NCBI GenBank assembly: GCA_963708045.1 | Contig: OY970181.1 | Coordinates: 887,566-951,565, forward strand | Origin: an uncultured bacterium | Lineage (GTDB): Bacteria; Patescibacteriota; Patescibacteriia; CAIQCM01 | Length of the DNA: 64,000 bases | Direction: 5' to 3' | Shown here: one piece after another, positions 33,672 to 63,713 of the stretch | Position numbering within the stretch: the first letter of the stretch is position 1 | Layout: each line of letters opens with the position of its first letter | Notes under the pieces: model-generated | The model's input: only the letters and a program-made list of their open reading frames with translations | The model's database searches: none | Told to the model about the DNA's origin: nothing | Translations under genes and position numbers: made by a program

Positions 33672-34118
33672 ATGGAAACAAGTTCTTTTGAACACGAAAT
33701 ACTGTTGCAATATCTACCCAAACCGATCAGAACCACGATCCTTTTTATCACCCATGACAACACCGACGCCACTCTGGACAAAGAGGCAGAAGCGGCGATC
33801 ACGAACAGTGTATCCATGAGTCACGTTGTCCGTTTGCCCCTAGCAGAAGTTCTTAGGTACATAAGCATGGGAATCTACGACGTCGTCGTCCTTTGGACTG
33901 ATCAGGAAAGTGACGATGAAATTTCGGCGCTTGCGAACAGGCTGAAAAAAGCCAGCCACCCCGAGAACGACGATAGTGAACACTACAAAGTAAAGATCGT
34001 CGTTTTCTCCGCGCGGCAAAACTCTGGTTCTCTGCCTTGCGTCAACGCAAGGGTTGAGCAGCCCAACGTGAACGACCTCGCCATGATTGTCAGTTTGGTC
34101 AACTTACGACACGACTAA
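33672..34118 (+). CDS. hypothetical protein, possibly degenerate CheY-like receiver (REC) fold; GC-rich orphan
   Basis: Start METSSFE preceded by AGGAGGG RBS. Alternating beta/alpha pattern: TILFITHDNTD ... YDVVVLWTDQ ... KIVVFSA. Codon usage differs from neighbours. Confidence 0.3.
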   Translation: METSSFEHEILLQYLPKPIRTTILFITHDNTDATLDKEAEAAITNSVSMSHVVRLPLAEVLRYISMGIYDVVVLWTDQESDDEISALANRLKKASHPENDDSEHYKVKIVVFSARQNSGSLPCVNARVEQPNVNDLAMIVSLVNLRHD

Positions 34119-34190
34119 CTGTCACACATTCAACCTCTAACCCAACTCCACACCACCTCGCTCGCCCAAAAAGCCTGCGAGGTGATTTAT

Positions 34191-35501
34191 TTAAACCAAT
34201 CCTCGTTTTTCGGTGAGCATTTTGGAAAAACCTAGAACACGAGGATCCATAATTAAATCCGAGCGGCGGACGGGACGTTTAAGCGTAATACCATCAAGCG
34301 TTCGGCAGCGCGACAAAGCGACGTAGGATTGGCCGGCGGCAAAAGCGCCGCGACCAAGGTCAATTACAACCTTGTCAAAAGTTTTACCTTGGCTTTTGTG
34401 AATCGTTGTTGCCCAAGCCAAGCGTAAAGGAAACTGCGTAAAACTTCCGAGCGTTTCTCTTGTAATTTCGCCAGACTCGCGATCAAATTTTGTCTTTGCC
34501 TTATTCCACGTGTACGGCAAAATTTCAAAGGTTCGGCCGGTATCCAAAGTTACGTCAATGGACTCGTCTCGCACTTCTCTTACCGTCCCGAGCGTGCCGT
34601 TTACCCAACGGCCTTGATTGTCGTTATTCATTAGCATTACCCGCGCCCCGTTCTTTAGTCGTAGTTCCATTTCGGTCGGCAAATCGCGTTCTTTAAATTC
34701 GCCAACCAGCTTACCTTTGGCAACAGCGACCTTACCACTAAGACGCGCTAGATTATTTTCGTTGTGCGTATCGGCCTGAGTATTAATCGTCATTAAGTGC
34801 ATATGCTCGCCCTTGGGGTCGGAAAAATCTGGATCAAAACGCAAATTTAATTCCGCGAGTTCGGCTTCGGATATTTTCCCATCGCGAACCGCGTTTAAAA
34901 TTTTAATAAAACCTTCGTCGGTCTGCCGATATATTTTATTTAATTCAATATATTCCAAAGCGCCAAATTGCATACATTCACGAATCGCGCCCGAAGAGAA
35001 AAAGAACGGCGTGGCATACATTTTTTCCAATTCTTCAGTTTCCTCGCCGCGCACGATCGGCGGGAGCTGATGCAAGTCGCCAATCATAATAAGTTTTTTG
35101 CCGCCAAACGGCGTTTTATTTTTAAGCGCCGCGCGCAAAAATGTATCAATACAATCCATAAGGTCGGCGCGAACCATAGAAACCTCGTCAATGATTATCG
35201 TTTGCAATTTTTGAAACAGTTTATCTTTGCGCGACAAAGTACCGTCATGCTTGGCTTCTTCAAGCGAGGCGCCGGGGCGCAATTTAAAAAATGAATGAAT
35301 CGTTTGTCCATCAATGTTTACGGCGGCGACCCCGGTTGGTGCAACCACTGCCACCGCCCGTCGTGTCCGCTCCCTAAAGTAACGCAAAAGCGTGGACTTG
35401 CCCGTCCCCGCTTTTCCGGTAATAAACACGTTCTTTTCACCCTTTTCCATCACCTCGTACGCATTTCTAAATTGTTCGTTAAAATCTATCTTGTCCAGCA
35501 T
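34191..35501 (-). CDS. Pif1/RecD-like SF1B helicase
   Basis: GKAGTGKST Walker A, VVAPTGVAAVNIDGQTIHS, IIIDEVSMV, GDLHQLPPIV. These are classic Pif1 family motifs. Confidence 0.7.
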   Translation of the reverse strand: MLDKIDFNEQFRNAYEVMEKGEKNVFITGKAGTGKSTLLRYFRERTRRAVAVVAPTGVAAVNIDGQTIHSFFKLRPGASLEEAKHDGTLSRKDKLFQKLQTIIIDEVSMVRADLMDCIDTFLRAALKNKTPFGGKKLIMIGDLHQLPPIVRGEETEELEKMYATPFFFSSGAIRECMQFGALEYIELNKIYRQTDEGFIKILNAVRDGKISEAELAELNLRFDPDFSDPKGEHMHLMTINTQADTHNENNLARLSGKVAVAKGKLVGEFKERDLPTEMELRLKNGARVMLMNNDNQGRWVNGTLGTVREVRDESIDVTLDTGRTFEILPYTWNKAKTKFDRESGEITRETLGSFTQFPLRLAWATTIHKSQGKTFDKVVIDLGRGAFAAGQSYVALSRCRTLDGITLKRPVRRSDLIMDPRVLGFSKMLTEKRGLV

Positions 35502-35527
35502 AAGTTAATTAAAGCACACAAACACCC

Positions 35528-35570
35528 CTCACCCCAACCCCTCTCCCATTCTTGGGCGAGGGTGATAAAA
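35528..35570 (-). terminator. putative intrinsic terminator after ygjP-like gene (GC hairpin + U-rich tract on minus strand)
   Basis: Minus-sense CACCCTCGCCC-aagaat-GGGAGAGGG followed by GTGTTTGTGTGCTTT. Confidence 0.3.
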
Positions 35571-35573
35571 AAG

Positions 35574-36137
35574 TTAAAAGTTAAAAGTTAAAAGCTCTTT
35601 CCTAAGTTTTTTATGCTCCGGAATCGTCTTCGCGACCAAATCCCAAAATCTTTTTGAGTGATTAAATTCTGCCAAATGACAAAGCTCGTGAACAATAATA
35701 TAATCGGCAAGGTGCGGCGCGAGAAGTGACAGCTTATAATTAAAATTTAGATTCCCCTTTTTTGAACAACTTCCCCAACGCGTTTTTTGATTTTTAATAT
35801 TCACCGCTTTAAAACGAAAACCATAAAATAAATTAAAATGCCTAATCCGATCATTAACAAGGGCGCGTGTGATTTCTTTATATTTTAAATATTCGCTCCG
35901 CGTTCCCTTTTTTACAATTTGTATTTTATGCTCTTTAAAAAAGGCAATTTTGCGGGTGAGCCATACAGCTTTTTCGCGGATAAATTTTTCGGCCAGTGTT
36001 TCATTAGCCCACCACGGCGTTGTCACAACAATTCTACCATCGCAATATACCGCAAGCCGCATCCGCTTGGCTCGTCGGCTTTTCTTTATGGTATAAGGAA
36101 GCGTCGTAGATTTATTTTTTAACGTAAAAAAATTAAT
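35574..36137 (-). CDS. YgjP/DUF45-family metal-dependent hydrolase (M48/WLM-like, HExxH)
   Basis: ...LPYTIKKSRRAKRMRLAVYCDGRIVVTTP...WGSCS...YIIVHELCHLAEFNHSKRFW. Start uncertain: the family-conserved N-terminus overlaps the atpC stop. The only in-frame candidate is ATT at 36135-36137. Confidence 0.55.
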   Translation of the reverse strand: MNFFTLKNKSTTLPYTIKKSRRAKRMRLAVYCDGRIVVTTPWWANETLAEKFIREKAVWLTRKIAFFKEHKIQIVKKGTRSEYLKYKEITRALVNDRIRHFNLFYGFRFKAVNIKNQKTRWGSCSKKGNLNFNYKLSLLAPHLADYIIVHELCHLAEFNHSKRFWDLVAKTIPEHKKLRKELLTFNF

Positions 36138-36576
36138 TTGATTCCGGCGTACCGCTACGCGCGCGATGATGACGATGAGCAACTTTAAGTCGCGCCATTT
36201 CCCGTTCCAAGGCGATAGCAGCATCGGCATAAGCAACAGCATCGTGATCTTTTGCCGCTTCGGCCGTGGCCTCGGCCCGCGCTTTGGCATTTTCAATTTC
36301 CGAAATAACTAAATCCTCGGCGCGGTCGGCCGAGTCGGCTAAAATAATCGCGCGGCTGCCTGGCAAAATTTGTACCGCGCCGCCGGAAACGGCAAAATAT
36401 TTTGTCGCGCCGTTTGCACGGACAACAAGCGCACCCGAAGATACTAAACCAACCAAACCAATATGGTTTGGTAAAACGGTTATTTCACCATCAAACGTCG
36501 GCACGGTTACGCTATCCACTTCTTCCTTAAGTACCGTCTTTTCAGGAGTTGTTATTTCTAAATTCAACTTTGCCAT
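36133..36576 (-). CDS. atpC: ATP synthase F1 epsilon subunit
   Basis: MAKLNLEITTPEKTV... beta-sandwich N-domain plus helical C-domain. Last gene of the atp operon. Confidence 0.8.
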   Translation of the reverse strand: MAKLNLEITTPEKTVLKEEVDSVTVPTFDGEITVLPNHIGLVGLVSSGALVVRANGATKYFAVSGGAVQILPGSRAIILADSADRAEDLVISEIENAKARAEATAEAAKDHDAVAYADAAIALEREMARLKVAHRHHRARSGTPESN

Positions 36577-36653
36577 TTGTAGGGTTTAGGGGTTAGGGGT
36601 TAGCGTTGAGTGTTTTACTAAACGCTATACGCTTGACCCTAAACGCTTTAATA

Positions 36654-38057
<1,404 letters not shown>

Positions 38058-38093
38058 TTATTATATTTACAATTTGCAATTTACTATTTGCCA

Positions 38094-38951
38094 CTAACCC
38101 TCAAGTGCGGCGCGGCCGGCGGAAATTTCCGCGATCTCGGCCGTAATCGCCGACTGACGCGCTTGGTTAAGAGTAAAAGTTAGATCGTCAACCATTTCCG
38201 CGGCGGCATCGGTCGCGCTGCGCATACTCATCATCCGCGCGGAGTGTTCCGAAGCAGCAGCTTCAAGAATTGCCTGGTACAGACGAGCTTCCAAAAAACG
38301 CGGTAAAAGTTCGTTAAGAATTATGCTCGGATCAGGTTCAAAGGCCGCATTCGCCACGTCTTTTTCAATCTGCTCCCCGAGCGCAATTGGCAAAAAACGA
38401 GTAACGCCCGCTGTCTGTTTTAAGGCCGAAATAAAACGCGTTCCCGCAACCCAGACACTACCATAGACCCCAGAAATAAATTCGCTTTGCGAAAGCGACG
38501 CGATCGGACGAATTGACTTAGCACGCGGCGCGTTCGTGAGTCCAGGAAAACTGGCAATAATATTTTTTCCAGCGCGACGCAAAGCCATTTCGGCGTGCCG
38601 GCCGCAAACAATGTAATCAACGTCGGCGTAGGCAGCCATATCCACGAGCACCGACCTAAGAAGTGAAACATTGTACGCACCGCAAAGCCCGCGGTCAGAA
38701 CCAATGACAATGCAAAGCGCTTTCTTTCCCTTAACCTCGGGCACGCAGAGCGTATTTTGGTGCGATGCCCCAAGGTACGACAAATGGCCGAGTAAGCCGT
38801 TCCCAAGCTCTTCGTACCGGCGCGCGGCGGTCGCAAGCATTACCGCACGACGCATTTTGGCTGCGGAGACAAGCTCCATAGCCTTAGTAATTTTTTTGGT
38901 ATTGCCAACCGACTTAATGCGGCTGCGAATTAATCGCGCGGGGACGGCCAT
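38094..38951 (-). CDS. atpG: ATP synthase F1 gamma subunit
   Basis: 285 aa. N- and C-terminal coiled-coil helices. ...ITAEIAEI C-terminus. Confidence 0.85.
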   Translation of the reverse strand: MAVPARLIRSRIKSVGNTKKITKAMELVSAAKMRRAVMLATAARRYEELGNGLLGHLSYLGASHQNTLCVPEVKGKKALCIVIGSDRGLCGAYNVSLLRSVLVDMAAYADVDYIVCGRHAEMALRRAGKNIIASFPGLTNAPRAKSIRPIASLSQSEFISGVYGSVWVAGTRFISALKQTAGVTRFLPIALGEQIEKDVANAAFEPDPSIILNELLPRFLEARLYQAILEAAASEHSARMMSMRSATDAAAEMVDDLTFTLNQARQSAITAEIAEISAGRAALEG

Positions 38952-38968
38952 TGTTTAGGGTTTAGGAC

Positions 38969-40468: not shown

Positions 40469-40472
40469 AAAT

Positions 40473-40865
40473 TTAAATTTTATTTTGAACCAGAATATTT
40501 TTTAAATTATTTATGTTTGTTTTTATTGAACCATCATAACGCGTATCTTCTACCTCCAAAACCATTCCGCCAATAATACTTTCATCAATTTTCTCTTCAA
40601 AAACCACGTTGGAAAATTTTTCGGAGATTTTTTTTCGCGTTGCCGGATTTAATTCTTTAGCCGAAGTAATCTGTCCAGCGCGACGTCCTTCCACCGCAAG
40701 CGCAACGCGCGAAAATTCGGAAAAGATGCGATGTTTTAAATTGCTTTTTCTTTTTCTGGCAAGATCGGACAAAAAAGCGCGAATAACCGACGGCCGCATC
40801 TCGCGCCCAGTACTCATAAGCACGGCGTGCAGTTCCTTGGCATAAGTGGCGGGCGTCTTGCGCAT
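40473..40865 (-). CDS. atpH: ATP synthase delta (OSCP) subunit, short form
   Basis: 130 aa matching the C-terminal part of OSCP (…[17 protein letters not shown]…[16 protein letters not shown]). Sits between atpF and atpA. Confidence 0.55.
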
Positions 40866-40867
40866 AG

Positions 40868-42600: not shown

Positions 42601-42629
42601 TTGACAAATTGGCTTTTTCTTGCTAAAAA
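42601..42629 (+). promoter_or_regulatory. putative sigma70-type promoter TTGACA-N17-TAAAAA for the plus-strand orphan gene
   Basis: TTGACAaattggctttttcttgcTAAAAAg about 85 nt upstream of ATG 42716. GGAGG RBS at 42703-42707. Confidence 0.3.
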
Positions 42630-42715
42630 GATTGGCTGCTTAAACTTTGTTTAACCCAAAAGTTGGCAGAGAATTTTCTAGGACGTAAGGAAAATTGAGA
42701 GGGAGGACTTTGAAA

Positions 42716-43621
42716 ATGACGAACGCAAGCACAGATAAACGACCGACTATTGTCAGTATTCACTCAACGCCTGGAATGCAGTATGACGTAGCAAGCGGAG
42801 GAATCGGTTTTTGCGTACCTTATGAAGTCAGCAATCAAAAACCGGTGAATCTGAAATTTTTTGCATTGGCCGCGGGTGGTTGTCCAATAGCTAGCACGCC
42901 TTGTGCAATTAGAATCTACGCCAAAAGCGACCTCAATAACGCAGTGGAGACTTTGGAGATAGCAAGCAAAGAAAAATCCGCCCAGTTTACTCTCCCTGAC
43001 AAATACAGAGATGACTTGTGCGATTACGTGCTAGTCGTCACCATGTGGAATCCAGAAGACACCAATGAGAACGTGTCGATTGAGATTCAATTCGTTCCAT
43101 TCGGATTGGAGGAACTTGCCGCCGAAGAAGATGAGGACACCGGAGTAAACCCTGGCGGAAAACTGGCCGACACTGTCGCCAGTCTGGCTATCCAAATTCC
43201 AGAGCTTGCTACCCAGTTCGGGGAAATCAAACGTCTCTGTGACGGTATGGATACTGAGCTTCAACAAGTCTCAGGAAAGACGGCCGATCTTCCCAAGACA
43301 CTTCATTCAATCGGGTTGCAACTTGAGCTCGTGACAAATGAAGCACGGAGACTGAATCAACTCCCCAACGACATCGCGTCACGAATAGCCCAGGTCGTTG
43401 CGGATGCAATCAATCCGCTCAAAAACGAAATGTCCGCGATGCGAACTACGCTTGAGGCGCTCGCAAAAATGCCACGAGCAACTTCGGCCGGTGTAAAGCC
43501 ACCGGCGAAGACCGATGACAAAACGGAGAAAGTGAAAATCTCAGGCAAGCGGTTGGTGTGGCGAATCGCAGTAGTCCTCGCCGTTGGGGCTGGACTGATC
43601 ACACTCATTCTGCGATTCTGA
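42716..43621 (+). CDS. hypothetical tail-anchored protein (beta-rich N-domain, coiled coil, C-terminal TM); GC-rich orphan
   Basis: Start MTNASTDK after GAGGGAGG RBS. C-terminal WRIAVVLAVGAGLITLILRF TM. Markedly higher GC than flanking atp genes. Opposite strand. Confidence 0.35.
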   Translation: MTNASTDKRPTIVSIHSTPGMQYDVASGGIGFCVPYEVSNQKPVNLKFFALAAGGCPIASTPCAIRIYAKSDLNNAVETLEIASKEKSAQFTLPDKYRDDLCDYVLVVTMWNPEDTNENVSIEIQFVPFGLEELAAEEDEDTGVNPGGKLADTVASLAIQIPELATQFGEIKRLCDGMDTELQQVSGKTADLPKTLHSIGLQLELVTNEARRLNQLPNDIASRIAQVVADAINPLKNEMSAMRTTLEALAKMPRATSAGVKPPAKTDDKTEKVKISGKRLVWRIAVVLAVGAGLITLILRF

Positions 43622-43639: not shown

Positions 43640-43675
43640 AAAAGCCAGGGGAGGAAACTCCTTCCCTGGCTTTTA
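43640..43675. terminator. bidirectional intrinsic terminator between convergent genes
   Basis: AAAA-GCCAGGGGAGG-aaact-CCTTCCCTGGC-TTTT. 11-bp stem with one G-T wobble. Confidence 0.65.
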
Positions 43676-46662: not shown

Positions 46663-49379
46663 CTACTTTCCGTGACATTTCTTATATTTTTTCCCTGATC
46701 CGCAAGGACACAAGTCGTTGCGGCCGATTTTTTCTTCGTTTTCAATTGAAGTCGCCGCTTCTTTAGCCACGCCACCCTCATTTGTTATTTGGTCAGAAGT
46801 TTTGGCCGGAGCGGTGACGGTGATTCCGCGCCGGTCAAAAAGCGATTGCTGGTTTTGCGAAGCGGCAAAGCCAACTTTAAAAACCGTACCGGCAACCTGT
46901 TTGTCTATCGCAAGCAAAAGTTCGCCAAACATTCTAAATGCTTCGCGCTTATATTCAACAAGCGGATCGCGCTGGCCATAACCACGCAGGCCAATTCCGG
47001 CGCGCAGGTGGTCAATGTTGTCCAAGTGCTCAATCCACATCTGGTCAATTGAGCGAAGCATTACCGCTTGTTCAACCTTGGCAAGCATTTCCTTGTCGGT
47101 AAATTGTTTTTTAAGCGTTTCACGAACCGCCGTGGCGATTTCAATTAAATATTTAATCATCGCGTCGCGCGCTTCAACGTCACCAAGTTTTCCGCCCGAA
47201 CCGGCGGCATCGGCAAATTCTTTAAGCTTAGCTTCGGCGTCCGATGGCAACGGAAAAATCGTGCGAATATCTTTGTCAATTTCGGTAAAATTCCACGCTT
47301 TACGGTCATCACCGGCAGTGTGAAATTGAATGATGCGTTTTATTTCCCGTTCTGCCGAAGCCATTACAAGCTCAGCCGTATCGCTCGCGTGCAAGATTTC
47401 CGCACGGCGGCGATAAACTGTTTCGCGGTGCTTGTTTAAAACATCATCGTAATCCAGTAAGTGTTTACGAATATCAAAGTTGTGTCCTTCAACTTTTCCT
47501 TGCGCGCTTTCAATCGCTTTTGACACCATTCCGTGCTCTATTGGCATATCGTCGGGAAGTCCCAAACGATTAAGCATTGCTTTCATTCTATCAGTCGCAA
47601 AAATACGCATTAGGTCGTCGTCAAGCGACACAAAAAATTGCGTGGATCCTGGATCGCCTTGACGACCGGCGCGACCGCGCAACTGATTGTCTATGCGCCG
47701 CGATTCATGGCGCTCGGTGCCGATGACATGAAGTCCGCCCGCCGCGCGAACTTTTTCCGCTTCTTCGGGCTTGGCGGATTACCACCAAGAATAATGTCCA
47801 CACCGCGGCCAGCCATATTGGTCGCGAGTGTTACCGCGCCGGCGCGACCAGCTTGGGCAACAAATTCTGCTTCGCGTTCGTGGTTTTTGGCGTTCAAAAT
47901 ATTGTGTTTAATTCCTTCGCGTTCAAGCAAGGCCGAAAGGGCTTCGTTTTTTTCAATGGAAATCGTACCCAAAAGAACCGGTTGGCCTTTGGCCACGCGT
48001 TCTTTTATGTCCGCGACCACGGCGTTAAATTTTGCCGCTTCATTTTTGTAGATCCGATCCTGAAGATCTTTTCTTACGATCGGCTTATTGGTCGGCACGG
48101 TGACGACTTCTAATTTATAAATTTTAAAGAATTCCTCAGCTTCGGTTGCCGCCGTTCCGGTCATTCCGGCGAGCTTAGGATACATTCGGAAAAGATTTTG
48201 AAAAGTAATCGTCGCAAGCGTTTGCGATTCGCGTTGAATTTTTACATTTTCTTTTGCTTCAATCGCTTGGTGCAAACCTTCAGAATAGCGGCGTCCGTGC
48301 ATCAGCCGGCCGGTAAATTCGTCAACGATAATTACTTCACCGTTCGTGACAACGTAATTCTTGTCCAACTTATAAAGCGTGTGCGCTTTAAGCGCGGAGT
48401 CCAAGTGAAAAATCGTTTTAGAATCGTTTTCCTTCCACGGATCGCGATTAAGTTCGGCGGCAAGGTGAACCGCGCCTTCGTCAGTAAAAGTTGCCGAATG
48501 CATTTTTTCGTCAACGACGTAATCTTTTTCCGGAATCAAACGGCGGATGGTTTTCGCGTATTCGTAATACATCTGCGTCGCCTCTTCGGCCGGCGCGGAA
48601 ATAATCAGCGGCGTGCGCGCTTCGTCAATCAAAATTGAGTCAACTTCGTCAATGACCGCAAAATTTGGCGGACGTTGAACCATTCGTTCCAGATCGGGCA
48701 CCATATTGTCGCGCAAATAATCAAAACCAAATTCATTATTCGTGCCATACGTTATGTCCGCGGCATACGCTTCGCGTCTGGAGCACGGTCGCAAAAAAGA
48801 ATATTCAATACGGAACGAACCAGTGAGGTCGCGCTTTGCATCTTCTTCGCCGCCTTCGGTATTCTTTTCGCTTGCCTTAAAATCAGGATCGTAAAGATAC
48901 GACGTTTCGTGGTTAACGATACCAACAGAAAGTCCAAGCGCGCGATATATTTGTCCCATCCACGTCGCATCGCGGCGCGCGAGATAATCATTGACCGTCA
49001 CCAAATGAACGCCTTTTCCCGAAAGTGCGTTTAGGTAAATCGGTGCCGTCGCGACCAAAGTTTTTCCTTCACCAGTTCGCATTTCCGCAACCGCGCCAGA
49101 GTGCAAAATCATTCCACCAATAAGCTGAACGTCATAGTGGCGCTGATGAAGCGTCCGCTTGCCAGCTTCGCGAACGCAAGCAAACGCTTCCGGCAATAAT
49201 ATATCAAGTGTTTCGCCGTTCTTAAGGCGTTCACGAAATTCAACGGTTTTTCCACTAAGTTCCTCGTCGGACAAAGCGCTAATTTTTTCTTCAAGCGCAT
49301 TAATCTTAACAATCTCAGGCTGGAATTTTTTTACCGCCCGCGCGTTAGTGTCGCCAAAAATTTTTGTAATTATGGACAT
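46663..49379 (-). CDS. secA: preprotein translocase SecA, interrupted by an apparent 1-nt frameshift (~47766)
   Basis: N-part 47691..49379 ends ...[13 protein letters not shown] then out-of-frame junk. C-part frame reads ...[43 protein letters not shown]... to C-terminal [15 protein letters not shown] zinc finger. Restoring one G in the GG run at 47766-47767 fuses them. Confidence 0.8.
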
Positions 49380-49576: not shown

Positions 49577-49605
49577 ATCGGGTCAGCCGTGTGGCCGACC
49601 CGATA
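49577..49605 (-). terminator. hairpin immediately after RT stop codon (possible terminator)
   Basis: Minus-sense ATCGGGTCGGCC-acac-GGCTGACCCGAT (12-bp stem incl. one G-U) followed by CTTAATTTATAAAATT. Confidence 0.35.
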
Positions 49606-49606: not shown

Positions 49607-50410
49607 TTAAGAACTCTTCTGCGGAACTCGTCCCTCGGCAACAGCAAGCCGATACAAACGATAAGGTTCTACAAGCGACGGCGGTAGTCCCCCACGGTAC
49701 ACATTGCGCACCCATCCCAAATTTCCCTCCACTTCCGACTGGCTACGCTCCCCCTGACAAGCGCGGTTAAGCATAGCTCGATAACGACGAATCTTTTTCC
49801 GCGACAAGCGAACCCCATCGGTGCGATAGGCGCGACCTTTTCGTAAAGCAAAAAGGGGCGAACCAATAGAAAGACCAGTGACTTCAACCGAACCATTGTC
49901 AATTGATCGACGCTTGCATTTGTCCCAAGCAAGACGAAAACCGCATTCCTGGATAATCGTCCTGATTTTGGCGATTGACTCACCAATCTCGGAACTATCA
50001 TCTCCAGAAAAACAAAGATCATCTACGTAACGAGTAAACCTGATTCCAGAAGAAAGCTCGCGCTTTAGCCGCACATCCATTTCCCGACAAGCAAGATTAA
50101 AAAGAACCGGTGAAGTCAGCGCACCCTGCGGTATTGCCCCGCGATAACTAACGAGCTTCACCAGAATCTTAATCACCGACGGCGCAAAATTCATTTCGGA
50201 AAAAATTTTACGAAGCCGCCTTTCGGTCACTTGCCCAAACGCGTCGCGCAAGTCGCAAAAGTAAAAGTATCTTCCATTGCGATGCTTAAGCGCGTTTGAG
50301 AACGGCGAATGTCCGCGAACACAACCATGAACTATCCGAAGCAGACGATCGCGACCGCGCAAGTATCTGTAATGTTGATCAAGAAGGACGCGCAAACGAT
50401 TTTGAACCAA
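49607..50410 (-). CDS. reverse transcriptase, retron-type (NAxxH and VTG motifs); N-terminus interrupted by in-frame TAA
   Basis: HGCVRGHSPFSNALKH (motif 2 with NAxxH), YFYFCDLRDAFGQV (motif A), IPQGALTSPVLFNL (motif B), RYVDDLCFSG (YxDD), SVEVTGLSIG (VTG). In-frame upstream ...GRTPKKNGGYRKHFSPPPEIRLVQNRL is RT motif 1, but a TAA (50488-50490) separates it from a GGAGG-preceded ATG (50554-50556, MENGISLGVLCSVLGLSLEVIQ*). GC-rich. Confidence 0.7.
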   Translation of the reverse strand: MVQNRLRVLLDQHYRYLRGRDRLLRIVHGCVRGHSPFSNALKHRNGRYFYFCDLRDAFGQVTERRLRKIFSEMNFAPSVIKILVKLVSYRGAIPQGALTSPVLFNLACREMDVRLKRELSSGIRFTRYVDDLCFSGDDSSEIGESIAKIRTIIQECGFRLAWDKCKRRSIDNGSVEVTGLSIGSPLFALRKGRAYRTDGVRLSRKKIRRYRAMLNRACQGERSQSEVEGNLGWVRNVYRGGLPPSLVEPYRLYRLAVAEGRVPQKSS

Positions 50411-50993
50411 GCGAATTTCCGGCGGCGGCGAAAAGTGCTTTCTATACCCGCCGTTCTTTTTCGGCGTCCGACCAAGACGATATTTTTCGCTAACCGCAAG
50501 TGCTTACTGAATTACCTCCAATGAAAGCCCCAAAACGGAGCAGAGAACACCAAGGCTTATTCCGTTTTCCATTGCCCCTCCCGTGTACAATTGTAAAGAG
50601 CGTTGAAAAGAAACGAGGGAACGAACCCGACGGCTCGCTCCCCCTCATAACAGCGCGACATTGAAGCACGCGGCCTTAACTCGTGCCCAAGCAAAACCCC
50701 AAAGCGACACTATTGCCGTAAGCAGCTTGAAGGCTGCATACCAGTGGCCGCGGGGCGCGTGGCACACGCGACAAGGCTACCCGCCAGAATTGCAGCAAGA
50801 GCAAGAGTTTGTGTTCAGTTGAACGTCTCCGCCTTGATGCGTTTTGAGCACGGCGCAACACCGCACCCTTGGCTAATTCGCTTGGCGCCGCCAGGTGCGA
50901 ACAAAGCCAATCCGATTACCGGCCTTTTGCCGATTGACGGAATTTACCGCTGTATGATAGTCCCTGGTAACTAAACCAACGGGGCATACCAAA

Positions 50994-51022
50994 AAACTAT
51001 GTGCTTTTCGCATTTTTGTCAA
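50994..51022 (-). promoter_or_regulatory. putative promoter TTGACA-N17-TAGTTT driving the RT-associated non-coding region
   Basis: Located right after the terminator of the upstream gene, at the 5' edge of the GC-rich island. Confidence 0.3.
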
Positions 51023-51026
51023 GACT

Positions 51027-51086: not shown

Positions 51087-51587
51087 TCAACTAAATTTTT
51101 TTTGCAAACTTCTCTCTTCTTCCTCAAACCTTTCTACTATGTCTTTATGCCCTCTTCTTTTTAGCTCGTTTTTTATTATTTCCGCAGATCTTTTTAACAT
51201 TAATAATTGATCGTAATGTTCATTGGCTTCGTTCCTGTAATCTTGAACCTCCCCGAATTTATTTCTTCCTGCTTGATCAATTTTGTCGCCACTTTCATCT
51301 AAATCAATCAGCATAGCATCAAATAATTTAGGTCTTAAGCGCGACCCACTAACAAATCCATGGTAACCGTCTACCAAATCTTTTAGAGGCAATGTCTTGA
51401 GATATTCAATCTTATCTTTCCAAATTTTAAGTTTTTCCCACTGCCGATCCGTTTCTTTTTCATTTCCTTCGTAGAAGAAGAATTTTTGAGATACAGACTC
51501 AACTAGATCTTGTTCCTCTTTCTCCTGAACATGCTCCACGTTAGCTTCGGAAGGTACAAATTTTTCATTTTCTGACATAAAAACCAT
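51087..51587 (-). CDS. hypothetical acidic protein
   Basis: 166 aa, AT-rich like host. Separated from the RT island by its own terminator. Confidence 0.3.
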   Translation of the reverse strand: MVFMSENEKFVPSEANVEHVQEKEEQDLVESVSQKFFFYEGNEKETDRQWEKLKIWKDKIEYLKTLPLKDLVDGYHGFVSGSRLRPKLFDAMLIDLDESGDKIDQAGRNKFGEVQDYRNEANEHYDQLLMLKRSAEIIKNELKRRGHKDIVERFEEEERSLQKKFS

Positions 51588-53042: not shown

Positions 53043-53082
53043 GAATATCTAATATCTAATGTCTAATGTCTAATCCGATGGA

Positions 53083-56695: not shown

Positions 56696-56757
56696 TTATG
56701 TGATTCTACTCCCACCGCCGCAGAAGTGGTAGTGTGGATAATTTTTTTATTTGCGCC

Positions 56758-57246
56758 TTAATATTTTCGGCAAAAAACTTCTATCGTAGAAACGGCTTTT
56801 TTGGCAATTGAAACGCTGTTCTTATAACTTATGAGGCGCGGCAAATCGCGATATGGAATCCATTTTATCGCCTGAACGCGATTTCGTCCTTCAGGTCGGC
56901 CATGTTCGTCGCCTGCCGCTTCCATTAAAAAATACGTAATGTATTTATGAACCGTTTCGCCAACGTGCTCGTACTTATCCTTAAACCAAATTGATGTTGT
57001 TCCAAGAAACGACACCGGATAAATTTTACCGAGTCCCATTTCTTCGCAGGTTTCGCGCACCGCCGCACCGCTCGGCGTTTCCCCTTTTTCAATCCTCCCC
57101 TTGGCAAACGCCCATTTACCGTAAGAATCTTTGATGAGCCCCGCAAGAATACCATGCGACGTACGCCGAAAAACCACCCCGCCGGCAGAATATTCAACCC
57201 GAGTTTTTTTGTTTCCAATCTTCGCCTTTACCACCACTTGCGTCAT
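56758..57246 (-). CDS. NUDIX hydrolase
   Basis: GRIEKGETPSGAAVRETCEEMGL Nudix box. Start probably MTQVVVKAK (the longer ORF would overlap ctpA). Confidence 0.6.
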   Translation of the reverse strand: MTQVVVKAKIGNKKTRVEYSAGGVVFRRTSHGILAGLIKDSYGKWAFAKGRIEKGETPSGAAVRETCEEMGLGKIYPVSFLGTTSIWFKDKYEHVGETVHKYITYFLMEAAGDEHGRPEGRNRVQAIKWIPYRDLPRLISYKNSVSIAKKAVSTIEVFCRKY

Positions 57247-57259
57247 AATAAAATTTAAA

Positions 57260-58540: not shown

Positions 58541-58552
58541 AAGAATAATTAA

Positions 58553-58562
58553 TTATAGCACT
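58553..58562 (-). promoter_or_regulatory. extended -10 box GTGCTATAAT only ~11 nt upstream of the ctpA ATG (possibly leaderless mRNA)
   Basis: Minus-sense GTGCTATAATtaattattcttATG. Confidence 0.35.
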
Positions 58563-59812
58563 TATTCGCGGCGAATGTCGGCGCCGAGAGCATTCAATCT
58601 TTCTGCAAGACGTTCGTAACCGCGATCAAGTATTTCCGCGTCGTGGACAACGGTCTCGCCTTTGGCAATCAACCCAGCAATCACCATCGTCGCGCCAGCG
58701 CGGATATCAAGCGCCTTGATCTCGTAACCGTGAAGTGGCGTCGGGCCAGAAATAACCACGCGATGTGGATCACAAACAACGGCGTTCGCGCCCATTTTGA
58801 CAAGCCAAGGAATGTGCGCCAATCGTCCTTCATACATCGGATCGTGAATCATAGACATTCCATTCGCTTGCGTGGCCAAAACCGAGAACGGCGCCTGCAA
58901 GTCAGTAGCAAAACCAGGATACGGCAAGGTTTGCAGGCGGAATGGTTTGATTGCCTTCGTCGCGGCAATATGCAATTTCCCATTGTCAAAAGTTGTTTCA
59001 ATACCAATTGCGTGGACAAGATTTAAAACAGCATCCAAGTCATTAATCTCCACACCCGAAAGCGTCGTCGCGCCACCCGTTGCCGCCACGGCCACGAGAA
59101 ACGTTCCAACTTCAAGCATATCCGAAGAAACAGTATGGTCGGTGCCACGCAAAGTTTTTGCACCAGTGATCGTAATTGTGTGCGTCCCCGCCCCTTCAAT
59201 CGTGGCGCCCATTGCCACGAGCATTGCGCAAAGTTTTTGCACATGCGGCTCGGCGGCAGCAATCTTGATGGTAGTTTTTTCTGGAACCAACGCCGCGGCC
59301 ATGAGCGCGTTCTCGGTCGCGGTCACGGAAAAAACAGGGAGGATATCGCTCGCGCCATGCAAGGCGCCAGAAATTGAAACGGTCGCGTCGGAAATTTTTA
59401 CCTGAGCGCCCATTTTTTCAAAAACGTTAAAGTGGTCGTCAAGCGGACGCTTGCCGATAATGTCCCCGCCCGGCTCGGGCAAAGTAACGGAACCAAACCG
59501 CGCCAAAAGCGGACCCATAAGCAAAACCGAACCGCGCATCCCGGCAACTAATTTGGCGTCAAGGTGTCCGATGTTCACATCGCGAGCGCACAATCTAACT
59601 TCGTGATCACCCGTCCAGTCGGCCGTCGCGCCCAAAGAACGCAAAATCGCAAGCATCTTATCGACATCCGAAATCCGTGGTACATTTCTTATGACAACAG
59701 GCTCGGCAGTTAAAAGCGAAGCGCAAAGTACCGGCAAAACTTCGTTCTTAGATCCAAACACCTCGATTTCGCCGTTTAGCTTGTTTCCTCCGTTAATGAT
59801 GAATTTACTCAT
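58562..59812 (-). CDS. murA: UDP-N-acetylglucosamine 1-carboxyvinyltransferase
   Basis: MSKFIINGGNKLNGEIEVFGSKNEVLP... EPT fold. Active-site Cys region. Confidence 0.9.
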   Translation of the reverse strand: MSKFIINGGNKLNGEIEVFGSKNEVLPVLCASLLTAEPVVIRNVPRISDVDKMLAILRSLGATADWTGDHEVRLCARDVNIGHLDAKLVAGMRGSVLLMGPLLARFGSVTLPEPGGDIIGKRPLDDHFNVFEKMGAQVKISDATVSISGALHGASDILPVFSVTATENALMAAALVPEKTTIKIAAAEPHVQKLCAMLVAMGATIEGAGTHTITITGAKTLRGTDHTVSSDMLEVGTFLVAVAATGGATTLSGVEINDLDAVLNLVHAIGIETTFDNGKLHIAATKAIKPFRLQTLPYPGFATDLQAPFSVLATQANGMSMIHDPMYEGRLAHIPWLVKMGANAVVCDPHRVVISGPTPLHGYEIKALDIRAGATMVIAGLIAKGETVVHDAEILDRGYERLAERLNALGADIRRE

Positions 59813-59851
59813 TTTTTTAATCTTAGGCTTAAGTATCCAGAATAAACTAAA

Positions 59852-60604
59852 ATGAAATACAAAACAAGAATCGGAATTCTAATTGGCGCTATCTTAGTTT
59901 TTTTAATTTTAACGCCGATCGTCGTCCTCTATACCTCCGGCTTTCGTTATAACGCCAAAAAACAACGCGTGGAAAAAGTTGGAATAATTTTTGTCCGTTC
60001 GCGCCCATCGGGCGCCGATATTTTTATTGACGGAAAAAAGCGTCCAGAAACAACCCCGGCCAGAATACGAAATCTTTTGCCCGGAAATTACGATATTAAA
60101 ATTAGCAAAACCGGATATACTTCTTGGGAAAAAACCCTGCCTTCGGAAAGTGAATTAACAACCTTTGCCGAAAACATCGCCCTTTTTAAAAATATTGATC
60201 CAGAAGAAGTTAGTCTGACTCCCAAAAAAGCGCTTAGCGCGGCAGAGTTAAAAGTTTTGGATCGCGAAGAGCAAAAAAGCTTTTCCGCAAAAAACGAAAC
60301 CGTTCGCACTGACGGCTTTGAAATCTGGATTGACGATGGCAAGGGCGGACACGACACGATTACCCGCCTTTCTGAAAAAATTAAAACCGTGCTTTTTTAT
60401 AGCGATAACGGTTGGATTATTTACGAAACCGATAATTCCATTCACGCCATAGAACGCGATGGCCGCGACAAAAGAAATGACTATGTGCTCGCCTCCGGCT
60501 GGAGCAACTTAAACGGCCTCGCCTTGTCTAGTGACGAAAGCGTCCTCTATTTTATCGCCGACAAAGACGGCGTTCCCCAACTTTATAAACGACAATTGCG
60601 GTAA
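59852..60604 (+). CDS. PEGA-domain membrane-anchored protein
   Basis: N-terminal TM. RSRPSGADIFIDGKK...TPARIRNLLPGNYDIKISKTGYTSWEKTL matches the PEGA beta-sandwich pattern. Confidence 0.5.
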   Translation: MKYKTRIGILIGAILVFLILTPIVVLYTSGFRYNAKKQRVEKVGIIFVRSRPSGADIFIDGKKRPETTPARIRNLLPGNYDIKISKTGYTSWEKTLPSESELTTFAENIALFKNIDPEEVSLTPKKALSAAELKVLDREEQKSFSAKNETVRTDGFEIWIDDGKGGHDTITRLSEKIKTVLFYSDNGWIIYETDNSIHAIERDGRDKRNDYVLASGWSNLNGLALSSDESVLYFIADKDGVPQLYKRQLR

Positions 60605-60653
60605 TTTTGCAAACAAAAAATTTCTCCTTTTACGGAGAAATTTTTTTATCTAA

Positions 60654-61490
60654 CTAACTTTTAATATATTCGTCCAGCGCCTCTTCCCAATTTCTAAGCT
60701 GAGGCAATTTTGTGTTCAGAAGCATTCCGTAGCGCGGGCGCGGCGCGGCAAGCGGCTCGTCGCGGCGGGCAATGGCGGTGACTTCGGCTTTAAGCCCAGC
60801 CAGTTCAATCGCTTTGGCCGCAAGCTGATACCAAGTCGCGACGCCCGAGTTTACAATATGATAAATGCCGTACGGTTTTTTGTTTTCAACAATTTCACGC
60901 ACCGCCTTGGCCACGTCGGGCGCATACGTTGGCGAGGCGACTTCGTCGTGCACCGCCGATACGCGACCGTCGCCCTGCGCTTTTCTTACGACTTCGTCAA
61001 TAAAACTTTCCTTGGCGTTTTCCGAAGTCCCTGGAAAACCAAAAAGCCGCGAGGTTCTAATGAGATATGTTTTGGTATTGTCTTCAAGCGCAAATTTTTC
61101 TGATCGTTCTTTGGCCTCACCAAAAACCGAAAGCGGTTCGGTTTTTTCCGATTCTTTATTGCCAGCGCTCCCCCGTCCGGAAAAAACATGCTCCGAAGAA
61201 AAGTGCACCAGTGTCATTCCCATAATATCGGCAATGTCCGCGAGCGAAGCAAGGGGCATAGCGTTATTAATCATCGCGCGGTCAGGTTCAGCCTCTGCGG
61301 CATCAATATCGTTCCAGCCAGCCGCGTTTATAATGACGTCAATGTCCGAAGTAAGCGTTTTAGCGATTGACTCGGACGAGGAAATATCAAATTCGTCGCG
61401 GCTAAGCGCCACGACTTCGTGTTTTCCGGTAAATTCATTAACAAGCGCGCTCCCAAGCATTCCTTTTGCGCCTAAGATCACTACTTTCAT
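60654..61490 (-). CDS. rfbD: dTDP-4-dehydrorhamnose reductase (RmlD) / NAD-dependent epimerase family
   Basis: MKVVILGAKGMLGSAL Rossmann start. ...NAAGWNDID...LVHFSSEHVF... RmlD-like. Confidence 0.7.
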   Translation of the reverse strand: MKVVILGAKGMLGSALVNEFTGKHEVVALSRDEFDISSSESIAKTLTSDIDVIINAAGWNDIDAAEAEPDRAMINNAMPLASLADIADIMGMTLVHFSSEHVFSGRGSAGNKESEKTEPLSVFGEAKERSEKFALEDNTKTYLIRTSRLFGFPGTSENAKESFIDEVVRKAQGDGRVSAVHDEVASPTYAPDVAKAVREIVENKKPYGIYHIVNSGVATWYQLAAKAIELAGLKAEVTAIARRDEPLAAPRPRYGMLLNTKLPQLRNWEEALDEYIKS

Positions 61491-61664
61491 AAAAGAAACT
61501 CTAACAAAAATTCCTACTTTAATCAAGAGTTTAAACTAGGGTTTAGGGTTTAGAGGTTAGGGGTTAGTACTTTTCCTATAGACAATGCCAAAAAAATAAA
61601 TGCGGCCTAAAGTCTCGTGACTCCAAGCCGCATATTAAGTGACGTTAGCTAGTCCGTTGACTAG

Positions 61665-62984
61665 CTATTTTGAACAACCTTTGCCAAGCTGTTGACACTG
61701 TGCAAGATCGCGACCAATCGCGCCCACTTCAACATGAACTCTATCCGACTCCTCCAAGAGGCGTAACAGCTTTGCGCGCTTTTCCTCGGACAGCTTGTTC
61801 CACCGTGCAGTGAGACCGCTTGTTGTCTTCATTTTCGCTTCGTACCACCGATGAAAAATCGGCGCAACGAACGCGGTCATAGAAACGCAGAATGCGAAGG
61901 TCGTGAATACCATCCCCATCCTTTTCACAATACCCTTATCCTTCCACTTCCAACGAATCACCGCGACCAGCACAAGTACAAAGGCAATCCCGCCGACATA
62001 GTCCGTCGGAATCCTGCCAAGCCACTCCTCATGCCACCAAATTTCGCCCGGCCTGAACCGCTCAAGCGTAAAGCTTGGGTTAAGAACAAACCAGAGAAAG
62101 TCCCACGACACGCACATTACGAAGTAGATGGCGAGAATCTCCACCTCTTTCGCGAGCGTCCACTTGAGCACACCCCAATAGCGGCCAAAGGCGAACGGCA
62201 GGTGTAGAAGAACAAACGGTAGGACAAACATGAACAAATGGTAACCCGTGAGATCCTTTCCGCTCATAATGAGCGCGTAGACAGTGTTGTGCTCGTGATA
62301 GGTCGGCGCAAGCAAAGCCCAGCCAACCTCGCGTTCAATGCAGATTTCAACCAGAGCGAACAGCAATGCCCAAATGAAGAGCACGCCCGTCTCCAAGCTG
62401 ATCGTCTGCATATCAACAATTGCCGTGAGAATCCAAACAGCGAACGAGAGAATCATGCAGAGCGTGAGCGTATCGCTAGCGCTCCCCGTGGCAACGAAGA
62501 TTGCGGCAAACCCGATCGCGGCAAAGCGCAAAGCAGTAATAAAGGTGTGGTAATATCCGGCGATCGTGATGAATGTTTTTGAATCCTTGCTGATCCAATC
62601 ACAAGTCATACAAGAAAACCCCCAGTCGTAGCGTGCGATCTTGCCCTTATTCACCGATCGCTGAACGCTCTTTACCCACAAGCAAGCGCCAAAGACAGCA
62701 AGCACGAAGACGAGCAGCGAAAACTTTAACGCAGGCGATTCCCACTTTGTTTCTGCGCAAGCTAGAACGACGAAGCCAATGAGCGGCACCATCCCGAACA
62801 CGTCGCCGTACTTATGGACATTAAAGTCCTGCCAGTGCAAAAACGGCCGGTCGCACCACTCCTTGTTTATACGTCTCGGAATCTGCCACCGCGCAATGGA
62901 AAAACGTTGCACGACTTCAAATCCAAGCGGAAAAAGCACGATTCCAATTGCCACAACCAAAACAAACAGCGCATATTGACTCAT
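61665..62984 (-). CDS. hypothetical polytopic membrane protein (GC-rich)
   Basis: Start MSQYALF after AAGGGGGA RBS. About 10 TM segments, Trp/His-rich loops. Confidence 0.4.
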   Translation of the reverse strand: MSQYALFVLVVAIGIVLFPLGFEVVQRFSIARWQIPRRINKEWCDRPFLHWQDFNVHKYGDVFGMVPLIGFVVLACAETKWESPALKFSLLVFVLAVFGACLWVKSVQRSVNKGKIARYDWGFSCMTCDWISKDSKTFITIAGYYHTFITALRFAAIGFAAIFVATGSASDTLTLCMILSFAVWILTAIVDMQTISLETGVLFIWALLFALVEICIEREVGWALLAPTYHEHNTVYALIMSGKDLTGYHLFMFVLPFVLLHLPFAFGRYWGVLKWTLAKEVEILAIYFVMCVSWDFLWFVLNPSFTLERFRPGEIWWHEEWLGRIPTDYVGGIAFVLVLVAVIRWKWKDKGIVKRMGMVFTTFAFCVSMTAFVAPIFHRWYEAKMKTTSGLTARWNKLSEEKRAKLLRLLEESDRVHVEVGAIGRDLAQCQQLGKGCSK

Positions 62985-63063
62985 CACTATCCCCCTTTTT
63001 GAGGTTGTTTCTAATGTAAAAATTGCTAATAATCGGCTAGAATAAGCCGACGATTCTGACCAG

Positions 63064-63092
63064 AACTTAGCATAAAAATGCTGTTTTGTCAA
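63064..63092 (-). promoter_or_regulatory. putative promoter TTGACA-N17-TAAGTT upstream of membrane protein gene
   Basis: Minus-sense cTTGACAaaacagcatttttatgcTAAGTTc. Confidence 0.3.
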
Positions 63093-63314
63093 GACAGGAC
63101 GCGTTTCGCTAAAATTCTATATTTTATCCAACTATGATATTTCTAATTACCGTTGACGGTCTAGTATATAGAGTTGACGAATGGATTATTTTATGCTAAT
63201 AAAACTAGTTATTGTGATTGATCGTGCAAACTTATCATAAATACAATTATGACAATTTTGCAGGGTTTTTCACTGAACACTTTAACCCTGACACAAACGC
63301 ACGGAGGAAATTCA

Positions 63315-63713
63315 ATGGCGACAAAAACGAAAATATTCCACCTAGGAGATGTCTTGAGCGTCATCACCGGATTCATTGTTTCGCCTGAAGGCACGGGCGG
63401 AATGAGGGCAATCCTTGATTTTATGCTCAAACATCGGAACACGGCCGCAGATATTACTTCAAGAACCGCAATTCCGGAATGTGGAGCATTCTTGATCGAA
63501 CAGCTCCCTTTCCTAGACCCATCTAGTCTTCCTTTCGCTGCCGTTGACGATCTGAGAAAGATACGAGAGACTCGTCGCACAAGGCAACGGAACGCAATGA
63601 TTTTGAGGTGGCTCACCAATCTGAACACGGGTCACTATGGGACTACCTATGGCGTAACCTATTGTGTGAAACCACTGCCCCGCAAAACCAAAACACGAAA
63701 CAAGCGCCCATAA
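63315..63713 (+). CDS. hypothetical protein (GC-rich orphan)
   Basis: Start MATKTKIFHLGD after GGAGGA RBS. Basic C-terminus. Confidence 0.3.
   Translation: MATKTKIFHLGDVLSVITGFIVSPEGTGGMRAILDFMLKHRNTAADITSRTAIPECGAFLIEQLPFLDPSSLPFAAVDDLRKIRETRRTRQRNAMILRWLTNLNTGHYGTTYGVTYCVKPLPRKTKTRNKRP

Follow-up and report, generated by a model that had tools for sequence, protein, structure and literature searches.

Retrons are made up of a reverse transcriptase (RT), an msr/msd non-coding RNA and an effector, and they act in anti-phage defence; NAxxH and VTG are the motifs specific to their RTs. Atypical genes are more often lower in GC than the genome which carries them (bioRxiv 10.1101/193490). The ribosomes of Flavobacteriia are 'blind' to the Shine-Dalgarno (SD) motif, and a strong SD is kept there on rpsU for autoregulation. 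Low SD use has also been reported for Parcubacteria (PMC9297842), of which about half have no detectable anti-SD motif (Tsurumaki et al. 2022, PMC9297842). Here we analyzed a 64,000-nucleotide stretch of an uncultured patescibacterium (the window; GenBank assembly GCA_963708045.1, contig OY970181.1, positions 887,566 to 951,565, with all coordinates below counted from its first letter). Within it the interval 33672-63713 was studied for five genes, which are three ORFans, a polytopic membrane protein and a retron-type RT with a structured non-coding region upstream.

It is, in our judgement, somewhat probable that the five are single-gene units which were acquired horizontally, as xenologues from one or more SD-using donors of somewhat higher GC. 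There is support for a foreign origin of the three ORFans and the RT and weaker support for that of the membrane protein, and GC is not the main source of this support. An earlier sequence-only reading had described these genes as GC-rich insertions of recent horizontal origin. All named open reading frames (ORFs) exist where that reading placed them, and the SD contrast, the GC at third codon positions (GC3) and the codon usage speak for acquisition, whereas a recent date was not demonstrated and no donor was found.

Translation signals

The gene-level comparisons cover 61 genes of the window, 56 of which are treated as native. In the native leaders, taken as the 22 nt upstream of every gene, A+T makes up 72% and G 14%; A is enriched at positions -6 to -4, T is enriched at -1, and a 5-mer SD is found in only one of these 56 genes. 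In all five named genes a purine-rich motif complementary to the 3' tail of the 16S rRNA is present 4-9 nt from the start codon. On the plus strand GGAGG stands at 33660-33664 (7 nt before the ATG of ORFan 1), at 42702-42706 (9 nt before that of ORFan 2) and at 63303-63307 (7 nt before that of ORFan 3). On the minus strand the RT has GGAGG at 50577-50581, within GGGAGGGG and 4 nt before the ATG at 50572, and the membrane protein has an SD-like GGGGG (AAAGGGGGA) at 62991-62995, 6 nt before its ATG, which is the fourth strongest of the 61. The three plus-strand sites had been noticed from the sequence before, and correctly; what had been missed is how exceptional they are in this window.

The anti-SD duplex energy was computed for positions -20 to -3 of all 61 genes against CACCUCCUU. 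The five named genes have the five lowest energies and do not overlap with the rest: -10.8 kcal/mol for the RT, -10.7 for ORFan 1, -10.7 for ORFan 2, -10.0 for the membrane protein and -9.5 for ORFan 3, as compared to a mean of -0.59 kcal/mol (standard deviation (sd) 2.5, minimum -7.9) for the 56 native genes. Random 18-mers of the window average -1.88 kcal/mol and only 0.9% of them reach -9.5, and the native leaders pair even worse than random. The word GGAGG itself is at chance level in the window, with 49 occurrences seen and 55 expected. Low SD use was typical also of the related loci of the Candidate Phyla Radiation (CPR) which were fetched for comparison. The coincidence of SD motif and named gene is not merely a matter of selection, because the membrane protein and the RT had been picked for their GC and not for a ribosome-binding site.

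Composition and codon usage

The five genes had been described as visibly richer in GC than an AT-rich backbone. All of them do lie above the mean of the 61 genes (0.437, sd 0.056), but only at z values of 0.9-1.1 (GC 0.486-0.501, ranks 6, 7, 8, 10 and 11 of 61), and the window as a whole is 44.0% GC. Several core genes are richer, namely atpE (0.553), atpG (0.536), murA (0.521), atpA (0.512) and atpD (0.510), and rpmA (0.52) and rmlD match the five. The bulge of the sliding GC profile at 36.5-40.5 kb is the ATP synthase operon; as a correction to the annotation, the GC-richest stretches of the interval are this operon and murA. The general pattern of GC-rich islands is ordinary gene-to-gene variation, and the idea of visible GC-rich insertions is given up on this account, the true outliers being AT-rich genes of the restriction-modification (R-M) operon. 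The strongest compositional outliers of the window are the ORF 30855-31646 (25.6% GC) and its 140-aa neighbour 31643-32065 (30.0%), together with hsdS (35.0%).

Grouping by SD gives a different picture. The SD-led genes (n=5) have a GC of 0.496 as against 0.433 for the native genes (Mann-Whitney p = 8e-4) and a GC3 of 0.532 as against 0.418 (p = 9e-4), so the compositional deviation associated with a genomic island is present in modest yet significant form (GC +6 points, GC3 +11 points, p ~1e-3). The frequency of cysteine is 2.4-4 times the native level in four of the five. Codon bias was calculated as a Karlin-type measure and compared with a same-protein resampling null, and the membrane protein had the highest z value of all 61 genes (9.0). 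The values of the other four were 6.3 (ORFan 2), 5.7 (ORFan 1), 3.1 (RT) and 1.7 (ORFan 3), and high values were also obtained for the AT-rich R-M genes, for atpD and for an AT-rich 166-aa gene. Of the two measures by which the earlier reading had proposed to check its view, codon usage is thus atypical in four of the five SD-led genes, whereas the GC deviation is small for each gene.

The deviations in relative synonymous codon usage (RSCU) of the three ORFans correlate with each other at r = 0.54, 0.58 and 0.67, as compared to 0.01 +/- 0.22 for native pairs (99th percentile 0.53). Strand bias was rejected as the cause of this common usage, since native plus-strand genes correlate only 0.08 on average.

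Proposed horizontal acquisition and its alternatives

In the favoured explanation five self-contained units, i.e. the three ORFans, the two-module membrane protein and the retron-type RT with its upstream structured RNA, would have come from one or more donors with SD-dependent translation and somewhat higher GC. They would have settled in the gaps that separate housekeeping operons, and three of them are oriented against the direction of most genes there. The donor-type signals which they would have kept are the GGAGG at 4-9 nt from the ATG, a raised GC3, a codon choice unlike the native one and a higher content of cysteine. If the host has no anti-SD, as in many Parcubacteria (PMC9297842), the GGAGG would be an inert relic. 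Each of the five units is monocistronic and is followed by a strong terminator-like hairpin. We infer that the difference reflects import and not a native specialised gene class, and also that the units are expressed at all. In kind, the event would be an ordinary acquisition of accessory genes together with an apparently decaying retron-like element, seen via an unusually clean marker.

A number of points weigh against horizontal acquisition. The five genes exceed the others in GC by only about 6 points, a level which core genes reach as well. Three of the five had been chosen partly for their GGAGG, which brings in some selection bias, and there is no rRNA gene in the window (Rfam), so that the 3' end of the host 16S rRNA, and with it the usability of an SD, is not readable there. 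In 80 other CPR loci the GC of SD-led ORFs exceeds that of the neighbouring ORFs only slightly (z 0.24, p = 0.02), and because this difference is marginal no general claim is made for CPR loci. The correlated codon usage of the ORFans could be a mere absence of native bias instead of the mark of a common donor; a common donor is not proven by it, since a shared absence of native bias gives the same correlation. The ORFans had no match in phage and plasmid records (tblastn; 50,697 phage records) or in IMG/VR viral contigs, and the phage or plasmid source which had been supposed for them found no backing in these homology searches. No tRNA was detected in the window (ARAGORN), no integrase, transposase or recombinase was found among its annotated genes, and no flanking direct repeats or common flank motif were found at the five units. 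The nearest genomes (AtpB <=64% identity) share no synteny beyond the atp operon, which makes an absence from relatives unreadable, and in 80 atpB neighbourhoods from CPR genomes nothing is conserved outside that operon, so the synteny test for insertion is uninformative. As there are no mobility marks and the relatives are too distant for synteny, insertion is deduced from the signals and not from an empty site. Finally, the junctions of ORFan 2 were not found in an independent assembly.

The first alternative is that nothing special has happened, i.e. that ordinary GC variation was combined with a selection of ORFs having GGAGG and that the small ORFs are native, lineage-specific genes whose relatives are unsampled. 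The GC z values of only about 1, the equally GC-rich core genes and the lack of mobility signatures agree with it, and so does the great distance of the nearest sampled genomes, from which fast-evolving small proteins would look orphan anyway. It is nevertheless unlikely. For five leaders to reach the top 0.9% of anti-SD pairing together, the probability is ~6e-11. The membrane protein and the RT share the SD class of the others even though they were chosen for GC, and both GC3 and codon usage differ significantly by SD status.

The second alternative holds that the five genes are native and form a small class with specialised SD-dependent translation in an otherwise SD-independent organism, by analogy with rpsU of Flavobacteriia. 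Their SD motifs are perfect and well spaced, which suggests maintenance, the RT is identical in two strains, and Bacteroidia keep a barely used anti-SD and apply it to particular genes (PMC13000453, PMC9976891). On the other hand, the five have no common function, as three are without relatives and one is a disrupted retron RT, and a translational regulon does not predict their atypical codon usage and GC3. About half of Parcubacteria, moreover, are without the anti-SD motif (PMC9297842). We hold such a native class to be rather unlikely.

A further proposal, which we consider doubtful, is that native translation is SD-independent and yet a small set of accessory and defence genes keeps perfect SD motifs, the RT and its ~386-nt RNA being an unclassified, effector-less retron-like element. 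If this were true and the anti-SD is usable, the SD-led genes would be a separately controlled translational class, e.g. under phage attack or altered ribosome composition, which may be likened to the bS21-dependent SD recognition in Flavobacteriia. If it were true and the anti-SD is missing, the SD motifs would be a clean and datable marker of gene import into SD-blind lineages.

Should horizontal acquisition hold, a translation signal would mark imports in SD-independent lineages (many CPR, Bacteroidia) far more sharply than GC. It also raises the question whether an SD-blind host is able to express imported genes. The clean contrast between SD and no SD is the one feature worth genome-wide follow-up.

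The retron-like element

The gene of the retron-type RT (RVT_1) is located at 49607-50572 on the minus strand and has 321 codons, with a 267-aa call at 49607-50410. Among the PADLOC models its best matches are RT_II-A (3.4e-40) and RT_VI (9e-39), the retron models ranging overall from 3e-40 to 1e-27, while other classes are far behind (group II 2e-11, Drt2/Drt3a ~1e-5 to 1e-6). The top PDB matches are all retron RTs, namely Ec67, Ec86, Kva2, Ec83, Ec78 and Eco8. The motifs PKKNGGYR, NALKH, DLRDAF, PQG, YVDD and VTG are intact, and the translation reads ...SPFSNALKHRNG... and ...GSVEVTGLSIG..., so that NAxxH and VTG are both present. Judged by these similarities the RT belongs to the retron clade. 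It is not assignable to a retron type because it scores similarly with several types, stays under the curated NCBIfam cut-offs (retron_St85 120 bits (1e-34) against 235, Ec67 116 against 450, TIR 116 against 600) and has relatives which are at most 32% identical. This limit of <=32% identity was found in metagenomes, plasmids and phages; the metagenome relatives were only RT-protease fusions at 29-30% identity, and none were found in viral contigs. RTs of this family occur on mobile elements and in defence islands. No description of retrons in Patescibacteria was found in the literature searched, and the window documents an apparently decaying retron-type RT in a Patescibacteria chromosome.

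The reading frame of the RT is not intact. An in-frame TAA is present at 50506-50504 (codon 23), between the ATG at 50572 and RT motif 1, and the alignment with the Retron-Kva2 RT spans this stop codon. In two independent Logan assemblies, nothing of the RT beyond the 267-aa remainder was predicted by the gene callers. The second assembly represents a different strain, because its copy of the neighbouring 166-aa gene is a 163-aa variant, and the RT is identical in both strains. The premature stop appears to be real, since two independent assemblies, one of them from another strain, give the same remainder.

Upstream of the RT, a candidate structured RNA of about 386 nt lies at 50605-50990 on the minus strand (~54% GC, non-coding). 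A promoter-like site precedes the island at 50994-51022, also on the minus strand (TTGACA, 17 nt, TAGTTT, with a weak second hexamer); it was read directly from the sequence and was not returned by the consensus scan. The ~450 nt upstream of the RT hold no long ORF, with 3-7 stops in every frame. The minimum free energy of the candidate RNA is -166.8 kcal/mol, with z -4.1 on the minus strand as compared to z -2.3 for the antisense, and it ends in a 13-bp hairpin and U-tract at 50644-50615. Searches in Rfam (gathering and E <= 5, incl. msr) and by blastn gave no match, no homologues of the RNA or the RT usable for covariation were found, and a transfer-messenger RNA was rejected as ARAGORN found none. 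No a1/a2 helix joining the region upstream of the RT to the 5' part was better than shuffled controls. Of the repeats only one stands out, a perfect inverted pair of 11 nt at 50875-50885/50407-50417 (~0.07 expected), the second arm of which is inside the RT ORF. The candidate RNA may be a retron msr/msd.

No effector gene or fused domain was found and the RT is stand-alone. Next to it are the 166-aa gene (51087-51587) and a 72-aa ORF, for neither of which a family was found in PADLOC, Pfam, NCBIfam or PHROG. The 166-aa product is an acidic protein encoded on the minus strand by an AT-rich gene (34.9% GC, codon-usage z 5.4) which is without SD and outside the SD-led class. A terminator hairpin follows the RT gene at 49577-49604 on the minus strand (z -6.6). 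Two other kinds of element were tried and rejected. A diversity-generating retroelement is not indicated, as no direct repeat of >=40 nt involving the RT region is present in the window (no template/variable repeat pair) and the RT matches retron models; for a group II intron, TIGR04416 scored 43.6 bits against a cut-off of 300 and there was no Rfam intron match. From these sequence features we read the island as a retron-like element that is no longer intact and is presumably decaying.

The three ORFans

ORFan 1 is located at 33672-34118 on the plus strand and encodes 148 aa (GC 0.488, GC3 0.59). Its flanking genes are hsdM and that of a Pif1-like helicase, and the surroundings are a defence neighbourhood. 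The protein is predicted to be soluble with an alternating strand-helix pattern, and a single-sequence AlphaFold2 (AF2) model with a predicted local distance difference test (pLDDT) of 54 suggests a beta-alpha-beta fold. It has no family in Pfam, PADLOC, NCBIfam or PHROG. A terminator-like hairpin stands at 34154-34184 between the gene and the convergent Pif1-like helicase gene (-20.1 kcal/mol, z -6.5). The gap between the start of hsdM and ORFan 1 contains a GC-rich double hairpin at 33551-33604 (incl. CCCTCCCCCATTTTTGGGGGAGGG), which is terminator-like on the minus strand.

ORFan 2 is located at 42716-43621 on the plus strand, head-on between atpB and a 147-aa gene, and encodes 301 aa (GC 0.498). 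The predicted layout consists of a beta-rich N-terminal region, long coiled-coil-like helices at 146-251 and a single C-terminal hydrophobic helix at 279-301, because of which the protein is predicted to be tail-anchored. The single-sequence AF2 model reached only a pLDDT of 44, and a PDB sequence search gave only weak coiled-coil matches. A 16-bp terminator hairpin at 43640-43674 (z -5.7) follows the gene and is bidirectional between the convergent genes.

ORFan 3 is located at 63315-63713 on the plus strand and encodes 132 aa with a basic C-terminus (GC 0.486). It matches DUF7736 (PF24875) at E = 0.0018 with 18.8 bits against a cut-off of 25, over profile positions 1-56 of 59, and the same region has weak PHROG matches to phrog_18585 and phrog_15963 (E ~7e-4). 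These matches hint that the protein faintly resembles phage families whose function is not known. A terminator hairpin at 63742-63774 (z -4.1) separates the gene from the convergent uppP.

Among 5.8 billion proteins no relatives of the three ORFans were found, each returning only its self-match. No convincing PDB sequence match was found for any of them, and a fold search with the models of ORFan 1 and ORFan 2 gave nothing at E <= 0.001. As had been noticed from the sequence, the three proteins share no obvious motifs, and no similarity among them was found. The claim that each has a plausible promoter of its own stands for two of them. ORFan 2 has a consensus-like site at 42601-42629 on the plus strand (TTGACA, 17 nt, TAAAAA), which was read directly from the sequence and had been skipped by the consensus scan, its second hexamer ending in A. 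ORFan 3 has its best site at 63086-63115 on the plus strand (TTGTCA, 18 nt, TAAAAT, 10/12 matches) and a second one at 63218-63247; none was found for ORFan 1. The three were also said to be lone plus-strand genes in minus-strand territory. They are lone, but the native genes rpmA (ribosomal protein L27; 54604-54882, 52% GC, without SD, Pfam match on a Logan contig) and a PEGA-domain gene (59852-60604) are on the plus strand there as well.

It may be asked whether ORFans 1 and 3 are real coding genes at all or chance or decayed ORFs, in which case only ORFan 2, the RT and the membrane protein would encode anything. Neither has homologues, the confidence of the structure predictions is low, 64 kb of sequence should contain a few random ORFs of 130-150 codons, and ORFan 3, in its longer ORF 63249-63713, is flat in GC by codon position (0.47/0.47/0.48) and is overlapped by an antisense ORF. 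Against this, each has an SD in the top 1%, a well-spaced ATG, a terminator hairpin and an ORF occupying an intergenic gap that would be empty without it; in addition ORFan 1 shows the coding-type pattern of GC1 > GC2 and ORFan 3 has three concordant weak phage-family matches in the same region. We regard the absence of coding in these two as improbable.

The membrane protein

The polytopic membrane protein is encoded at 61665-62984 on the minus strand and has 439 aa and about 10 hydrophobic segments (GC3 0.60). A 15-bp terminator hairpin follows its gene at 61600-61633 on the minus strand. The description of the named genes as orphans is right for the three small proteins, which have no homologues, and not for this one: an exhaustive HMMER search gave 384 relatives, the best with 54% identity over the full length, and by these homologies it is not an orphan. 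No Pfam family was found for it. Stand-alone homologues exist separately for residues 6-201 and 200-390, which shows the protein to be a fusion of two unrelated membrane modules of ~200 aa each. An internal duplication was rejected, as the two halves have no similarity to each other. Its neighbours here are the cell-envelope genes rmlD, the PEGA protein and uppP, and the Caballeronia homologue sits between glycosyltransferase and phosphatase genes; a role in the cell envelope is a reasonable guess.

Assembly support

The source contig is metagenome-derived and 1,188,223 bp in length. In the Logan assembly of ERR12035931, ORFan 1 is joined to the Pif1-like helicase gene, a 7.9-kb contig carries PEGA, rmlD, membrane protein, ORFan 3 and uppP in the same order, and murB, hpf, the 166-aa gene, RT and secA are together on a contig. 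In the second run, ERR15459707, hpf, the 163-aa variant, RT and secA are joined too. Four of the five junctions are thus reproduced by independent assemblies, and misassembly, which had been named as a possible source of the segments, is made unlikely. Chimerism, in which GC-richer segments of another organism would have been misjoined to a CPR contig, might be suggested by a metagenome-derived contig of 1.19 Mb and by a frameshift in secA, maybe an assembly error, but it is very improbable because the Logan assemblies (ERR12035931, ERR15459707) reproduce the joins and contexts of four of the units and each unit is a single gene with native genes within a few hundred bases on both sides.

Genomic setting and other sequence features

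The window is a stretch of bacterial chromosome and not a phage. A phage or prophage origin of the interval was rejected, as megablast against phages gave no match and the genes are housekeeping genes (atp, secA, mur, pyrG). An AtpB scan of 185,579 species genomes returned only Patescibacteria-type metagenome-assembled genomes, the best matches being Ca. Moranbacteria and unclassified Patescibacteria with 58-64% identity. By AtpB similarity, the window belongs to a Patescibacteria chromosome which is nearest to Ca. Moranbacteria.

Pfam annotation places almost all genes of the interval on the minus strand. The ATP synthase operon atpBEFHAGD is at 42534-36654 on the minus strand (Pfam). Also in the interval are genes for a Pif1-like helicase, a YgjP-like metallopeptidase, a histidine phosphatase, a NUDIX protein, a cytidylyltransferase and DUF3467 and ASCH proteins, as well as secA, hpf, murB, mraY, pyrG, a second NUDIX protein, an S41 protease, murA and rmlD. 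In its first 26 kb the window carries gltX, an M23 peptidase gene, lexA, dinB, alr, serS, a class II aminoacyl-tRNA synthetase gene, greA, genes for a PBP2-type transpeptidase and an AddA-like helicase-nuclease, mreC and mreB. The gene orientation changes from plus (89-6333) to minus (6326 onward) near 6300, and from there the GC skew is persistently negative; this switch might mark a boundary related to replication.

The type I R-M operon consists, by Pfam, of hsdR (26434-28788), a DUF3800 gene (28954-29613), hsdS (29643-30851) and hsdM (32019-33473), with two very AT-rich small genes between hsdS and hsdM. A defence-type neighbourhood extends over 26434-36296 and comprises hsdR, the DUF3800 gene, hsdS, the two AT-rich small genes, hsdM, ORFan 1, the Pif1-like helicase and the YgjP-like metallopeptidase genes. 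The ORF 30855-31646 (minus, 25.6% GC), which is without family match, contains at 31110-31361 a perfect 48-nt tandem repeat in 5.2 copies (16-aa units).

The gene secA (46663-49379, minus) is split into two ORFs by a frameshift near 47760-47790, where one frame stops at 47691 and another continues the conserved sequence. As this is an essential gene in a reduced genome, the frameshift is probably an assembly error or a polymorphism.

Arrays of 3-4 TCTAATN heptads are present at 3511-5102, 29605-29631 and 53048-53074, with 22 matches as compared to 0.37 expected. They stand in the leaders of lexA (4078), a small ORF (4771), dinB (5113), the DUF3800 gene and murB, with inverted copies around 4725-5062. 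An operator, possibly of SOS type, is one candidate function, and a leader element specific to the lineage is another. In the 417-nt intergenic region 11395-11810 two 49-nt copies with 88% identity are found at 11517-11565 and 11612-11660, each with the palindrome GGCGACGCAT...ATGCGTCGCC.

Comparison with known systems

A classical genomic island would have an integrase or transposase, a tRNA or attachment (att) site and flanking direct repeats, none of which are present here, while the deviation in composition is. The five units also resemble the 'moron'-like units of phages, which have their own promoter and terminator, in that they are monocistronic, that two have promoter-like sites and that ORFan 3 is faintly similar to DUF7736, phrog_18585 and phrog_15963. 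They differ from morons as there is no prophage context, the similarity is sub-threshold, and neither the 50,697 phage records nor the IMG/VR contigs gave a match.

The RT best matches retron models and solved retron RTs, has NAxxH and VTG, and has a GC-rich non-coding region of predicted structure ahead of it on the same strand, as in retrons. Unlike these, its frame is interrupted by a stop at codon 23, an effector gene and a clear type are lacking, and the upstream RNA of ~386 nt is without convincing a1/a2 repeats and has a terminator-like hairpin at its end.

In their native leaders, which are rich in A/T, lack an SD and are enriched in A at -6 to -4, the genes of the window are like those of Bacteroidia (PMC13000453, PMC9976891) and of Parcubacteria lacking the anti-SD (PMC9297842). 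The difference is the handful of accessory genes which here have a perfect GGAGG, and whereas the SD exception of Flavobacteriia is a ribosomal protein gene, here it includes ORFans.

Another close resemblance is to horizontally acquired 'atypical' genes and ORFans of bacterial genomes, as captured by the atypical models of GeneMarkS-2 (bioRxiv 10.1101/193490). These likewise are single genes of short length which deviate in GC, GC3 and codon usage, have no homologues and are placed between housekeeping operons, some of them beside defence genes. No mobility genes or attachment sites accompany the genes described here, their deviation is towards higher GC, and their clearest marker is the translation signal and not the composition.

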